From contig CACYOR010000002.1 in NCBI GenBank assembly GCA_902775985.1, positions 21,139 to 85,138 on the forward strand: a stretch of 64,000 nucleotides of DNA. The letters are read 5' to 3'. The notes under the pieces are model-generated. The model was not told the origin of the DNA and made no database searches. It saw only the letters and a program-made list of their open reading frames with translations. The position numbers and the translations under genes were made by a program. Source of the stretch: Oscillospiraceae bacterium (lineage in GTDB: Bacteria > Bacillota > Clostridia > Oscillospirales > Oscillospiraceae). Of this stretch, positions 3,752-55,617 are shown piece by piece (the first letter of the stretch is position 1; every line of letters begins with the position of its first letter).

Positions 3752-5661
3752 ACACGACGCTCGACCGCAGGCTCCATCCGGAGCTGCTGGTGCGGATCGT
3801 AGGCGTGGCCTTCTTCGCGTATCTCTTCTTCGGCTTCATGCTTCTGCCCTGCCTCAACACCCTCACCAGCATCTTCAACGTCAAAAACGCCGCCGGCGAA
3901 CGGGACGCCTTTGCCGTCATCCGTTTTTTCCTGGCCGGCAGCATGGGCAAATATGTCTGGAACTCCCTGAAGCTCGCGATTCTGCTGGTCATCACCGTCA
4001 ATGTGGTGGGCATCTCCATCGTGCTGCTGACGGAGTATTTTGACATCAAGGGCGCCCGCATCCTCCGTCTGGGCTATATGACCACGATGATCTATTCCGG
4101 CGTCGCCCTGGTCACCGGCTATATGTTTCTCTACGCCAATGACGGCATTCTGACCACCGCCTTAAAAAACGCCTTCCCCAACATGAACGGCAACTGGTTT
4201 TCCGGCTTCAACGCGGTGCTCTTCACCATGACCTTCGCCTGCACCTCCAACCACGCCCTCTTCCTGCGCAATGCCATCCGCGGTATCGACTACAACACCG
4301 TGGAGGCCGCACGGAACATGGGTGCCAAGCCCTTCAAGGTGCTGTGGAAGGTGGTCTTCCCCACCCTGATCCCCACGCTTTTCTCCCTCACGGTCATGAC
4401 CTTCATTACCGGTCTGTGCGCCATGTCCGCCCCGACCTTGCTGGGCTATGACTCGATTAACCCCGAGATCGTCCGTTTGGCCGGCTCCTCCAGCGCGGAC
4501 GAGGCCTTCCCTCAGGCCCGCGCGGCGCTGTTGTCCATCATCCTGGCCATGTTCACCATCGTGCTGCTGACGGTGCTCTCGGCCTACGAGCGCAAAGGGC
4601 ACTACCTCTCCGTCTCCAAAACCAAGGCCAAGCTTCAAAAGCAGAAGATCAACAATCCCGTTTCCAATGTCCTGGCCCACATTTACGCCTACGTTCTCTT
4701 CATCATCTACATGACCCCCGTGGTGATGATCGTCATCTTCTCCTTCCAGACCTACAGCGCCATCCGCCTGAAAAAGCTGGATCTGAGCCAGTGGACGCTG
4801 GTCAACTACTTTGGGCAGCAGGACTATGAATACCTGACCAGCCGCGGCAAATACAAGACCCGCGTGGGCTCCATCTCCGGCGTCTTTGCCAACGAGGCCA
4901 CCCTCGGCGGCATCAAGCTGAGCTTTGTGCTCTCAGCCCTCGCCGCCGCCCTTGCCTGCGTGATCGTGGTGGTCGCCTGCAACTACATGTTCCAGAAGCA
5001 CCATAAGAAGAGCGGCGTGGTGCTGGAATACGCCCTGCTCTTCCCCTGGCTGCTGCCGACGATCCTGATCTGCTACTCTTACCGCACCTATTTTAACAGC
5101 GATTCCATCTGGTACGTGGGCAACCAGAATCTCTATTACGCTCAGAACGTCCGCTTCCTGATCGTTATGGCCTATACGGTGACGAAGCTGCCCTTCTCCC
5201 TGCGCATGATCAAGGCCTCGTTCTACTCCATTGATGAGGAGCTTGAGGAGGCCGCGCGGAACCTGGGGGCGAGGAAGATCTATACCTTCCTGCGCGTGAA
5301 ACTGCCCATCATCCTGCCCAGCGTGCTGGCCGTCTTCGCGCTGAACTTCAACGCCCTCTTCACCGAGTACGACATGTCCGCCACCTTTGCCAGCACCTAT
5401 GGCACCAGCTATGCCATGGTCATTCAGGCCATGTGCCGCGAGGAGGGCCTCTACGGCTACAATGTCAACGCCTCGGGCCGCCGCTGCGCCTCCACGGTGT
5501 TCATCATGCTTGTCTCCGGTCTGATCCTCTATCTGGTCTACGGCGTGGGCTCCCGCGATCTGGGCGAGCGTCTGGAGATCCGCGACCGCCGCCGCAAGCG
5601 CCTCGACCGTCTCTTCGGCCGGAATAAGAAACAGGAAGGAGTCGTCAAACCCAAGGTATGA
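3748..5661 (+). CDS. ABC transporter permease, fused two-module (FbpB/ThiP-like)
   Basis: 637 aa polytopic membrane protein with two EAA-like loops (VEAARNMGAKPFKV and EELEEAARNLGARK); ATGA overlap with upstream ATPase gene. Confidence 0.88.
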   Translation: MNTTLDRRLHPELLVRIVGVAFFAYLFFGFMLLPCLNTLTSIFNVKNAAGERDAFAVIRFFLAGSMGKYVWNSLKLAILLVITVNVVGISIVLLTEYFDIKGARILRLGYMTTMIYSGVALVTGYMFLYANDGILTTALKNAFPNMNGNWFSGFNAVLFTMTFACTSNHALFLRNAIRGIDYNTVEAARNMGAKPFKVLWKVVFPTLIPTLFSLTVMTFITGLCAMSAPTLLGYDSINPEIVRLAGSSSADEAFPQARAALLSIILAMFTIVLLTVLSAYERKGHYLSVSKTKAKLQKQKINNPVSNVLAHIYAYVLFIIYMTPVVMIVIFSFQTYSAIRLKKLDLSQWTLVNYFGQQDYEYLTSRGKYKTRVGSISGVFANEATLGGIKLSFVLSALAAALACVIVVVACNYMFQKHHKKSGVVLEYALLFPWLLPTILICYSYRTYFNSDSIWYVGNQNLYYAQNVRFLIVMAYTVTKLPFSLRMIKASFYSIDEELEEAARNLGARKIYTFLRVKLPIILPSVLAVFALNFNALFTEYDMSATFASTYGTSYAMVIQAMCREEGLYGYNVNASGRRCASTVFIMLVSGLILYLVYGVGSRDLGERLEIRDRRRKRLDRLFGRNKKQEGVVKPKV

Positions 5662-28256: not shown

Positions 28257-28386
28257 GATGATGGGAGTCGCTTGCATCCGCTTTCCGCACGCGAAAAGCG
28301 GATAAATGGATTCGCCAGTTTGTGAACTGGCTCATGCACACGCCACCGGCGTGTGCGGACATGATTCGACTCCCTTCCCTTTTCCA
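28257..28386. repeat. tRNA-linked structured element, copy G (closing helix from tRNA-Gly T-arm, three internal hairpins)
   Basis: 28257-28270 is an exact 14-nt copy of tRNA-Gly positions 28430-28443; GGGAGTCG 28263-28270 pairs with CGACTCCC 28367-28374; hairpins 28276-28303, 28314-28331, 28336-28356; homologous to 55367-55505. Confidence 0.7.
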
Positions 28387-28391
28387 AACAA

Positions 28392-28420
28392 AAAGACCGC
28401 CCCACCGGGCGGTCTTTTCG
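28392..28420. terminator. bidirectional terminator after tRNA-Gly
   Basis: AAAAGACCGCCC/GGGCGGTCTTTT stem flanked by A/T tracts on both sides. Confidence 0.85.
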
Positions 28421-28422
28421 TT

Positions 28423-28496
28423 TGGAGCGGATGATGGGAGTCGAACCCACCTTATCGGCTTGGGAAGCCGGAGTTCTACCGATGAACTACATCCGC
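28423..28496 (-). tRNA. tRNA-Gly (anticodon CCC), CCA encoded
   Basis: manual cloverleaf: GCGGATG acceptor, GTTC/GAAC D-stem, anticodon loop TTCCCAA, GTGGG-TTCGACT-CCCAT T-arm, CATCCGC-T-CCA. Confidence 0.9.
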
Positions 28497-53061: not shown

Positions 53062-55143
53062 TTACCAGACACAGATCCGATTCTCCGGTGCCAGATACAT
53101 CCGATCACCCGGCTGGATGCCGAAGGTCTCGTAGAACTCCTCGAACTGCTGCACCGTCACGTTTGTGCGCAGGTAGCTGAGCGGATGGCTGTCATACTGC
53201 AGGGAGATGTACTCCGACTGCTGGCTGGTGAGTGTCCGCCACAGCTTCGCATACTGGCGGAAGAACAGCTCATAGTCGAAATCCGGAACCGTTTTGGCGA
53301 TACCGAGCATGCACTTGAGGCCGGCCATGTCGGCGATGGCCTCGGTCTGGATGTTGCTGCCCTTCACCATGGTGCTGCCAAAGGCCTTGATGCCGTCGTA
53401 ATAGGCGGCCAGGCGCTCAGCCCGGGCGGTGAAGGCGCTGTAATCCTCCTCCGTCCACCAGTTGCGCAAATCACCGTTTGCATCAAACTGGGCGCCGTTG
53501 GTGTCGAAGGCGTGGGAGATCTCATGCCCGATGACCGCGCCGATACCGCCGTAGAGCTCCTCGTCGCGCATATCATCACGGTAGAAATCGCCGCCCAAAA
53601 TACCGAGCAGGATGTTGATGGAGTTGTCCTGGGGATTGTAGTAGGCGTTGCATTCCAGCGTGCTCATCAGCCAGTAGCCGCGGTCCACCGGCTGATTGGT
53701 CAAGGCTACGTCCTGCTCCAGTTCATACTCGCTGAGCGTCTTCACGCACTCGCGCAGAGACAGGCCGGAGAGATCCACGTCGGAATAGTCTTTCCACTTT
53801 TCCGGATAGGCCACGTTGACCGTGATGCGATCCAACTTCTCCAACGCCGCTTCCCGGGTCGCATCCGAGAGCCAGTCCGTCTCGGCCAGCATCTGGCGAT
53901 AATAAGCGAGCACGTCTTCGCACACGCCCGTGATCCGCTCCTTGACTTTGCCGGCATCATAGCGCTCCAGGTAGCAGCGCTCCAAGGGCTCAGCAAGCCA
54001 GGAGGAGACGAACTGATAGGCATACTCCTCATCGGAGAGCTTGCCCTGTGAACCCATCGCGGCGTTCTGCAGATCCAGCATGGTGTTGAAGCTGTCCTGA
54101 TCCACATAATTGGACTGCCCGATCACATACTTGATGAGCATGCAGCTCTTCATCCCCGGGAGATTCTCCTCGGTAAAGACCTCGCTCAGCTTTTCCAGAT
54201 AGGCCGGTTCCTCCACCAGGAGCTTTTCCGCCTCTCCGTAGCCGTAGGAGCTGATCAGCCGCTCCAGGGGGAAGTTGGGTGCGAGGGCCGCCGCATCTGC
54301 CATGCTGTACTCGTTGTTGATCTTCTGGAGATAATCGGGGCTCATCTGCTCGTCCGCCGTCATGCAGACCGCGGCCAGCTTGGCCTCAAAGGCGATGGCT
54401 TCGTCAAAACGCTTTTCCGCCTCCTGCTTGGAGTAGCCCAGCTTTTCCAGCATAGCGGTGCTGCCCTTCTTGTACACATCGCTGAGCAGACGGCCGACAA
54501 CGCTTTTGTTCACATACTCGCCGGGATCCTGCAGCAGGAAACCGCTGTCGCTAAGATCAAGGATGTAGCGGGTCGCGTCGTTGAGGGAGGCGGTGTTCTC
54601 CATGCTGACAAAGCGCGGCACCTGGTAGGAACGCTCCCTATCGCAGAGAAAGTCGCTCAGCTCCTCGATGCTCGTCAGGGCCTCAATTGCCTCCACCGTG
54701 GGGCGGATCGGCTCCACACCGGCTGCATTGCGCGCATCCCAATCCAGATAGGCCGCGTAGAAATCGCGAATCAGATCGGCGTTGTGGCCCTCCAACTCCT
54801 CGTCCTCGAACAGGGCTCTGGCCTTGGCGTCGGTCTCCAGCTGTACATCCAGGAAGGGGCCGCACGAGGTATAGCCCGCGGGGATCTCACTTGTGGAGAG
54901 CCAGTCGTAGTTGACAAAGAGATGGAAGTCCTCCGCCGGGGATGTGCTCATCCCGGCTTTGATGTTGGCCTGCAGATCGGTGTCCGCCCAGGGCTCTCCG
55001 CCGCCGGGCTTGCCCATCATCAGCTGCTGCCCAAAGAGCAGGAAAGCGCCCGCGGCCAGTACCAGCACCAGCAGAACGATGCCAATACCGATCAGCCATT
55101 TTTTTGCTTTCCCAGGCTTGCGTGTTTTCTTTTCTTCGTCCAT
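53062..55143 (-). CDS. pepO: M13-family zinc metallopeptidase (PepO / neprilysin-like), N-terminal membrane anchor
   Basis: start MDEEKKTRK with AGGAGAG SD; TM anchor WLIGIGIVLLVLVLAAGAF; HEISHAFD (HExxH) and downstream E ligand region. Confidence 0.92.
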   Translation of the reverse strand: MDEEKKTRKPGKAKKWLIGIGIVLLVLVLAAGAFLLFGQQLMMGKPGGGEPWADTDLQANIKAGMSTSPAEDFHLFVNYDWLSTSEIPAGYTSCGPFLDVQLETDAKARALFEDEELEGHNADLIRDFYAAYLDWDARNAAGVEPIRPTVEAIEALTSIEELSDFLCDRERSYQVPRFVSMENTASLNDATRYILDLSDSGFLLQDPGEYVNKSVVGRLLSDVYKKGSTAMLEKLGYSKQEAEKRFDEAIAFEAKLAAVCMTADEQMSPDYLQKINNEYSMADAAALAPNFPLERLISSYGYGEAEKLLVEEPAYLEKLSEVFTEENLPGMKSCMLIKYVIGQSNYVDQDSFNTMLDLQNAAMGSQGKLSDEEYAYQFVSSWLAEPLERCYLERYDAGKVKERITGVCEDVLAYYRQMLAETDWLSDATREAALEKLDRITVNVAYPEKWKDYSDVDLSGLSLRECVKTLSEYELEQDVALTNQPVDRGYWLMSTLECNAYYNPQDNSINILLGILGGDFYRDDMRDEELYGGIGAVIGHEISHAFDTNGAQFDANGDLRNWWTEEDYSAFTARAERLAAYYDGIKAFGSTMVKGSNIQTEAIADMAGLKCMLGIAKTVPDFDYELFFRQYAKLWRTLTSQQSEYISLQYDSHPLSYLRTNVTVQQFEEFYETFGIQPGDRMYLAPENRICVW

Positions 55144-55257: not shown

Positions 55258-55335
55258 CTGGTCAGAGTGGGGAGACTTGTTTGCCTGTTTCGCTTGTGGG
55301 AGACGCGAAACGTAACAAACGCCCCATAATCTACA
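55258..55335. repeat. tRNA-linked structured element, decayed tandem copy P' (carries 20 nt of tRNA-Pro 3' end incl. CCA, 1 mismatch)
   Basis: TGGTCAGAGTGGGGAGACTT vs tRNA TGGTCGGAGTGGGGAGACTT; followed by GTTTGC + hairpin TGTTTCGC/GCGAAACG as in copy P, then only the 5' half of hairpin C (AACGCCCCA). Confidence 0.7.
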
Positions 55336-55366: not shown

Positions 55367-55505
55367 CGTCGGAGTGGGGAGACTTGTTTGCATGTTTCGC
55401 TTGCGGGAGACGCGAAACATCATAGAATCGGCCAGTTTTTGAACTGGCCGATGAACGCCCCACCGGGGCGTTCGATTTTGATTCAAGTCTCCCCCTCTAA
55501 TACCA
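55367..55505. repeat. tRNA-linked structured element, copy P (closing helix from tRNA-Pro T-arm, three internal hairpins)
   Basis: GTCGGAGTGGGGAGACTT 55368-55385 = tRNA-Pro 55545-55562; GGGGAGACTTG 55376-55386 pairs with CAAGTCTCCCC 55484-55494; hairpins 55392-55420, 55427-55452, 55453-55473; collinear homology to 28257-28386. Confidence 0.72.
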
Positions 55506-55541
55506 AAAAGACAGGAGGCTCTTTTGAGCCTCCTGTCTTTT
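55505..55541. terminator. bidirectional terminator after tRNA-Pro
   Basis: AAAAAGACAGGAGGCTC/GAGCCTCCTGTCTTTTT. Confidence 0.88.
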
Positions 55542-55617
55542 TGGTCGGAGTGGGGAGACTTGAACTCCCGGCCTCTTGGTCCCGAACCAAGCGCGCTACC
55601 AGCTGCGCTACACCCCG
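55542..55617 (-). tRNA. tRNA-Pro (anticodon CGG), CCA encoded
   Basis: manual cloverleaf: CGGGGTG acceptor, GCGC/GCGC D-stem, CTTGG-TTCGGGA-CCAAG anticodon arm, GGGAG-TTCAAGT-CTCCC T-arm, CACTCCG-A-CCA. Confidence 0.9.

Follow-up and report, generated by a model that had tools for sequence, protein, structure and literature searches.

A family of three-hairpin elements with arms matching the neighbouring tRNA gene in Oscillospiraceae and Clostridia genomes

Two elements convergent with tRNA-Pro and tRNA-Gly

The 64-kb window (the whole stretch of Oscillospiraceae DNA that was analysed) contains housekeeping genes only, and no linked recombinase, transposase or reverse transcriptase was found among them. 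Two elements, P and G, lie convergent with intact genes for tRNA-Pro and tRNA-Gly, and each shares a bidirectional terminator with its tRNA. The features of the two loci are listed below.

P locus:
55259-55312, plus strand: partial third unit (repeat D1), consisting of arm A' (TGGTCAGAGTGGGGAGACTTG), TTTGC and hairpin 1 only
55368-55505, plus strand: P element, convergent with tRNA-Pro
55368-55386, plus strand: P arm A' (GTCGGAGTGGGGAGACTTG), reverse complement of tRNA-Pro nt ~56-74 and direct repeat of 55544-55562
55387-55391, plus strand: P junction linker TTTGC (consensus NTTGC in the family alignments)
55392-55420, plus strand: P hairpin 1, ATGTTTCGC / GCGAAACAT with a loop of 11 nt, from covariation and folding
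55427-55452, plus strand: P hairpin 2, ATCGGCCAGTT TTTG AACTGGCCGAT, from inverted repeat, pattern and covariation
55453-55473, plus strand: P hairpin 3, GAACGCCCC ACC GGGGCGTTC, from covariation and folding
55482-55505, plus strand: P arm B, inverted tRNA-Pro T-loop and T-stem 3' strand (55482-55494), then decayed acceptor and ACCA (55495-55505)
55506-55541: bidirectional terminator hairpin common to P and tRNA-Pro
55542-55617, minus strand: tRNA-Pro(cgg), intact
55659-55631, minus strand: tRNA-Pro promoter TTGACA-17-TATAAT, perfect consensus

G locus:
28257-28386, plus strand: G element, convergent with tRNA-Gly
28257-28270, plus strand: G arm A' (GATGATGGGAGTCG), 14 nt, reverse complement of part of the tRNA-Gly 3' end
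28271-28364, plus strand: G core, with CTTGC, hairpins 1-3 and linker GGACATGA
28276-28303, 28314-28331 and 28336-28356, plus strand: G hairpins 1, 2 and 3
28365-28386, plus strand: G arm B, TTCGACTCCC followed by decayed acceptor and CCA
28387-28422: bidirectional terminator common to G and tRNA-Gly
28423-28496, minus strand: tRNA-Gly(ccc), intact

Comparison of the two loci confirmed that P and G align collinearly and are homologous, as an earlier note on this DNA had proposed, and covariance model R1 scored them at 110.8 and 102.7 bits. A repeat search found 19 nt of P (55368-55386) to be identical to tRNA-Pro at 55544-55562, with the inverted sequence TTCAAGTCTCCCC at 55482-55494; the arm had been correctly recognized as a tRNA-Pro copy, but its extent (18 nt, 55545-55562) was off by one. 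Scanning the window with R1 gave no complete copy beyond P and G. The earlier count of two therefore holds for complete copies, but it overlooked the partial unit at 55259-55312, whose 51-nt repeat is 94% identical to 55368-55418. The hairpin 2 pattern matched four times in the window against 0.2 by chance, the four matches being two palindromic sites each scored on both strands.

Folded as single-stranded DNA, P reaches -43.1 kcal/mol (z = -9), and its terminator, arm B and the tRNA 3' end form a palindrome with 30-nt arms that are 87% complementary. No plus-strand sigma-70-like promoter facing the element was found at P or G, where only the tRNA promoters were seen. An internal promoter (TTGCAT...TAAGGT) was considered and rejected, because its spacing of 19 to 29 nt shifts with the length of hairpin 1. 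Downstream of the P element, a TG-extended promoter-like site (55211-55182, minus strand) precedes an M13-peptidase gene (53062-55143) on the same strand.

Distribution, tRNA-derived arms and turnover

A search pattern combining hairpin 2 with the hairpin 3 loop matched 37 stretches in species genomes, of which ~32 were real and all came from Oscillospiraceae, Faecousia or Clostridia MAGs, and 67 stretches in metagenomes (~55 real). With R1, built on 25 copies, 106 copies were detected on the forward strand of the loci fetched from Oscillospiraceae/Clostridia MAGs and gut metagenomes, including diverged copies behind tRNA-Tyr and another tRNA-Val that the pattern had missed. Complete copies all lie convergently to a tRNA or tmRNA gene, at a distance of 45-95 nt. 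These genes include Ser, Val, Gly, Leu, Thr, Lys, Ala, Arg, Gln, Pro, Glu and Tyr tRNAs, amounting to ~15 tRNA species and one tmRNA (locus L020). A pattern scan of IMG/VR and BLAST against phage and plasmid collections returned no copy, and in Rfam, at gathering and permissive thresholds, only the two tRNAs matched. Only three tRNAs without an element in the fetched contigs were usable for comparison, and a generic pattern for lone left modules was too noisy for use. Orphan copies in L035, L067 and L087, in L013/L036 and in L057 have tRNA-like arms (e.g. tRNA-Lys type) and a terminator with no tRNA gene behind; this would reflect either loss of the tRNA or movement of the unit, arms included.

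On the plus strand the element reads A', NTTGC, hairpin 1, A(A/T)GG, hairpin 2, hairpin 3 (with its ACC loop), an ATTT-type linker and B, followed by the terminator and the tRNA. It is non-coding and ~130 nt long (~180 bp counting the terminator), and the sequence upstream of A' is unrelated from locus to locus. Arm A' is the reverse complement of tRNA nt 55/56-76, covering T-loop, T-stem 3' strand, acceptor and often CCA, whilst B is an inverted copy of the T-loop and 3 bp more, continuing into a decayed acceptor/CCA. Identity between arm and tRNA, scored position by position (n = 50), was as follows.

A' against tRNA nt 54: 4%
A' against tRNA nt 55: 62%
A' against tRNA nt 56-72: 92-100%
A' against tRNA nt 73-76: 76-88%
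B against tRNA nt 52-63: 92-100%, except nt 53 (66%)
B against tRNA nt 64-75: 42-72%, an abrupt drop

The edge of A' is sharp and always lies inside the T-loop, and outer A' is far better conserved than outer B, although the acceptor part of A' is missing in G, L012 and L020. Both A' and B track a species difference in the tRNA-Pro T-stem between the window and L070. Over the loci, the closing-helix sequence matches the local tRNA. The earlier proposal of a family with a conserved core and with ends specified by the adjacent tRNA is borne out.

That proposal had described the closing helix as equal to the T-arm of the neighbouring tRNA, and had given this helix and the CCA end more weight than they bear. 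The helix is indeed a tRNA copy, its two strands both being copies of tRNA nt 55-63, but not of the T-arm alone, as the 5' arm spans the whole 3' end. Departures of A' or B from the tRNA are never compensated in the partner arm. Since both arms copy the tRNA and their changes go uncompensated, the helix shows no independent covariation and offers no independent structural evidence. Nor is the CCA end of both window copies conserved in the family: tRNA-Val copies, for example, read TTTCCGAGAG.

Tandem arrays of units are common, with three units in L012 and further arrays in L032 and L069, and the units of an array are copies of one another. Half-units occur as well (e.g. 55259-55312 in the window, and L018), the left ones made up of A'-TTGC-hairpin 1 and the right ones of hairpin 2-hairpin 3-B, and their boundary recurs between hairpins 1 and 2. 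The neighbours of half-elements in L038, L056, L099 and L101 were examined as possible cargo and rejected, being ordinary chromosomal genes with no integrase.

Cores group by genome, lineage or subfamily and not by tRNA identity; a "G type" core, for instance, lies behind Gly, Ser, Leu, Arg and Ala tRNAs. The tRNA-Gly locus of a close relative (L017) has one unit more than the window, with an unrelated core between like arms. This second core, CCTCCGCTGCGGCGGAGG-CCGGGTCGCGGGG...GAAAACATGCCACTGGCACGTTTTC, was seen in L017 (oriented extract, ~nt 1606-1725) and in L049 (~700-800), and its presence within like tRNA-derived arms indicates that the arm architecture is not bound to one core family. 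At a truncated tRNA-Gln T-loop in L099 (~4690-4950), a junction of A with TTTGC is followed by ~170 nt of AT-rich sequence, a decayed B-like copy and a terminator; this stretch may be a third core type.

Other sequences were found in or beside the units. A ~190-nt repeat rich in GTGAAAT/ATTTCAC lies within the hairpin 2 loop of one unit (L023 oriented extract, ~nt 195-385). In L038 and L046 the sequence CAATGTCAGTAAGTTAAGCTGACGAATCCTCC... breaks the shared terminator inside its loop, directly after the first arm, and may be another mobile element targeting terminator hairpins. Beside the element, the last 8 nt of tRNA-Val are the insertion point of islands whose first gene encodes a large serine recombinase (N-terminus MKAVIYARYSTESQ...), with the junction between TGGTGGAG and CAACGCAAGTCATATCCGAACTT in L007, L053, L075, L094 and L095, and between TGGTGGAC and ACATGCCTGTTAAATCCGAAC in L044, L051 and L091. 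Because island-like sequence also adjoins hairpin 2 in L094 and L038, the hairpin 2-hairpin 3-B-terminator module may have been captured by the island; alternatively, the island may insert at a pseudo-site in this position.

Covariation in the hairpin core

Covariation in the hairpins, which the earlier note had suggested checking, received strong support from the family alignment. Standard pairs make up 96% of cells, 27/34 pairs have changed on both sides, and none of 500 shuffles attained the observed values. Changes on both sides were seen for 9/9 pairs of hairpin 1 and 8/9 pairs of hairpin 3; in hairpin 2 the inner 7 bp are near-invariant and the outer pairs covary. That variable stems are kept by paired changes argues for selection on folding.

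RNA selected on one strand is expected to show many G-U and few A-C pairs. Hairpins 1-3 contain 15 G-T and 18 A-C pairs in ~2270 cells (~0.7% each) with no strand asymmetry, and as G-U pairs are no commoner than A-C, neither strand is favoured. The hairpins are under selection, but probably not as one-strand RNA.

This count bears directly on whether the element encodes a small RNA. The plus-strand transcript would end at the shared terminator, and would carry a ~20-nt 5' segment antisense to the tRNA 3' end, partly sequestered by B, or form a tRNA-like minihelix with CCA that acts on or mimics the tRNA. Such an RNA would fit the identity of A' to the tRNA (92-100%) while outer B decays, the way in which both arms follow the tRNA-Pro T-stem between the window and L070, the bidirectional terminator, and the conserved four-way junction fold with its conserved loops and linkers; antisense selection on A' could explain why outer A' is better conserved than outer B. 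Against it stand G-U pairs no commoner than A-C, upstream flanks that are unrelated and hold no plus-strand promoter-like site at either locus, and a CCA that is not conserved in the family. Several copies have uncompensated A' mutations, and G, L012 and L020 have lost the acceptor part. There is no Rfam match, and repeat DNA typically shows such half-units and tandem arrays. We consider a small RNA unlikely. Of the features of an Rfam-type small RNA class, a curated match, a one-strand G-U signal and, at P and G, an own promoter were looked for and not found. Among the three ideas raised earlier, the almost purely Watson-Crick pairs, the missing promoter, the unrelated upstream sequences and the missing Rfam match disfavour the tRNA-mimicking or antisense small RNA. 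A miniature tRNA-targeting module and an attachment-site architecture fit best, because of the form of A', the spread over ~15 tRNA species and one tmRNA, the tandem arrays and the half-elements. Plain terminators, REP elements and CRISPR arrays explain the element poorly, as the earlier note had held.

A derivation of the hairpins from the D or anticodon arms of the tRNA was rejected, as the similarity was unconvincing. Drawn with a 5-bp stem, hairpin 2 (55431-55448; 28314-28331) has a loop, TTTTTGAA or TTTGTGAA, like the T-loop TTCGAAT. On the strength of this loop resemblance, hairpin 2 could be a second T-arm-like recognition site.

Proposed insertion at the T-loop and alternative origins

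The reading that we favour, tentatively and at slightly less than an even chance, is that the element is non-autonomous DNA inserted at the T-loop of the tRNA gene, which folds in single-stranded or cruciform form and is mobilized in trans. Insertion would occur in the manner of T-loop-class integrative elements: the tRNA would stay intact, and a copy of its nt 55/56-76 (A') would end up displaced beyond the distal end of the element. The three-hairpin core and arm B would act as folded single-stranded or cruciform DNA, forming the recognition structure for a recombinase or transposase given in trans, and A'/B pairing would offer a duplex mimicking the target T-loop. Units would then multiply locally by tandem duplication, and would decay through deletions located at the bases of hairpins and midway along the palindrome of B, terminator and tRNA.

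Phage Ms6 provides a precedent, as its strand exchange takes place in the 7-base T-loop and its target is set by an attP core of 26 bases that matches the tRNA end exactly, such that changing the core retargets it (PMC1762012). Islands generally regenerate their target and leave a displaced fragment (PMC4383910). In its form, A' corresponds to the displaced fragment that a T-loop crossover would leave. As with Ms6 and the Islander genomic islands, the tRNA beside the element is intact, a direct repeat of its stretch between T-loop and 3' end lies displaced, and a tmRNA gene is also among the targets; as in Ms6, target choice would follow 22-26 nt of core identity (PMC1762012, PMC4383910). Unlike these elements, ours has an extra inverted T-loop copy and three covarying hairpins, one core family uses ~15 tRNA species, and no phage or plasmid relatives were found. 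Judged as a tRNA-integrating island, it has the intact target tRNA and the displaced direct repeat starting in the T-loop, but an integrase and cargo are absent between the repeats, where only ~130-180 bp lies, and none was found in the flanks.

Folded single-stranded DNA serves as the recombination site of CTX-phi-type IMEX elements and of integron attC. The element resembles these in its two inverted segments able to pair and mimic the target duplex, in a conserved structure with variable stem sequences, in encoding no recombinase and in its tandem arrays. It differs in that its target is the tRNA T-loop, not dif or attI, and it shows no sign of Xer or IntI; the single-stranded active form is one that we infer. 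Membership of integron attC was rejected, as the R''/R' boxes RYYYAAC / GTTRRRY are unmatched and the stem base ACTCGA / TTCGAGT is T-loop sequence. IS91, with its GTTC target, was rejected on junction sequences that do not match.

Like REP/REPIN, MITE and PATE-type repeats, the element is short, non-coding, multi-copy and intergenic, with hairpins kept by paired DNA changes, and would presumably be mobilized in trans. In contrast to them, it is strictly anchored at tRNA/tmRNA 3' ends, its "terminal inverted repeats" are local tRNA copies that differ per locus, and it has no linked RAYT, TnpA or other transposase and no target-site duplication of the usual kind. Membership of the MITEs was rejected, since no TIRs are common to all copies and the arms differ with each tRNA and equal the local one.

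Several observations run against T-loop insertion or bear on how it might work. No recombinase, transposase or reverse transcriptase linked to the copies was found in the loci or the window, and no neighbouring protein family was shared by more than three loci. No empty site or excised form was observed in the loci compared, and a strain comparison through the HTH protein beside tRNA-Pro, a single comparison, gave an identical locus only. Hairpin 2-hairpin 3 is near-identical in L022, L023 and L027, all from one MAG, whilst their arms and terminators are unrelated. Unrelated terminators beside near-identical cores are awkward if the terminator travels with the element, so the cores of one genome may resemble each other through gene conversion, not recent movement. 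The left half-site GCAA at the A'/core junction is unlike the T-stem. To our knowledge, arm B would have no role in classical tyrosine-integrase attP sites.

A more far-reaching version, which we think improbable, is that these elements represent a hitherto unrecognized class of programmable mobile modules aimed at tRNA/tmRNA genes. Both arms would be re-written from the target at each insertion, either by fold-back or tRNA-primed copying of the tRNA 3' end, as a bacterial non-autonomous retro- or single-stranded-DNA element, or by a T-loop recombinase reading a folded DNA cloverleaf. If the arms are re-written in this way, one core could colonize any tRNA without destroying its target.

The mirror symmetry around the terminator raises the further, and also unlikely, explanation of a passive palindrome. 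Fold-back copying at the tRNA terminator hairpin and gene conversion with the tRNA would make and keep the mirror copies, and the core would be an old, vertically inherited spacer whose copies in one genome gene conversion keeps alike, maybe with a role as insulator or in terminator protection. B, spacer and terminator do reflect terminator, spacer and tRNA end with functionless spacer bases included, and in L022 the palindrome matches at 37/39 positions despite a decayed left arm. Locus-specific terminators also fit, as do the array units of L012, which are copies of one another and not fresh tRNA copies. What speaks against a passive origin is the presence of the same core subfamilies behind at least five different tRNA species in different genomes, the like arms of the unrelated second core, the variable-stem hairpins held by paired changes and the difference of one unit between L017 and the window.

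Arm boundaries that coincide with the limits of the tRNA molecule, at the CCA end and the T-loop/T-stem, would suit a retro-type origin, which we regard as quite doubtful. Here the primer would be a terminated pre-tRNA folded back at its terminator hairpin, or else a mature tRNA annealed to A', and after a template switch to a core RNA the hybrid cDNA would enter the tRNA gene by homologous recombination. The mirror palindrome has the orientation of a snap-back product of the tRNA-sense strand, and A' resembles a primer-binding site in having 21-22 nt that can pair with the tRNA 3' end; Neurospora mitochondrial retroplasmids integrate via tRNA-primed hybrid cDNAs. Yet no reverse transcriptase was seen near any copy, the neighbouring tRNA genes all encode CCA, and the repeat in L015 runs ~6 nt past CCA. 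As m5U54 and pseudouridine 55 are not known to us as obstacles to reverse transcriptases, this origin also leaves the arm boundary in the T-loop unexplained.

An orphan guide RNA for an RNA-guided enzyme, with A' as guide and the three hairpins as scaffold in the manner of TnpB/IscB omega RNAs, Cas12k-type homing RNAs or IS110 bridge RNAs, is very improbable: a ~20-nt tRNA-matched segment that varies with the neighbouring sequence does adjoin a conserved structured scaffold, and GGTT adjoins the matched segment in the tRNA, but the ~90 loci contain no nuclease or recombinase gene, no effector of the OMEGA, bridge or CRISPR type (TnpB, IscB, IS110 recombinase, Cas12k) was found adjacent to or within the element in the examined loci, Rfam gave no match to omega, HEARO or IS605-type RNAs, the pairing is Watson-Crick only and arm B would sequester the guide seed.

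Genomic islands land chiefly at the 3' ends of tRNA and tmRNA genes, yet we found no description in the literature of a tRNA-linked repeat of this kind, or of miniature enzyme-less elements occupying these ends. Judged from its sequence, the element appears to be a kind of tRNA-targeted integrative or repeat DNA that is previously undescribed as far as the literature search reached, and there is a modest chance that the way in which its arms are specified is new. If it is mobile, one core on ~15 tRNAs would make the long-standing problem of tRNA target switching by integrative elements directly testable, and the element could point to a compact recombination system with a target set by ~22 nt of identity. 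In abundant uncultured gut Clostridia, the units give rise to tRNA fragments, to long palindromes and to breakpoints in assemblies beside tRNA genes, and supply part of the attachment site for larger islands.
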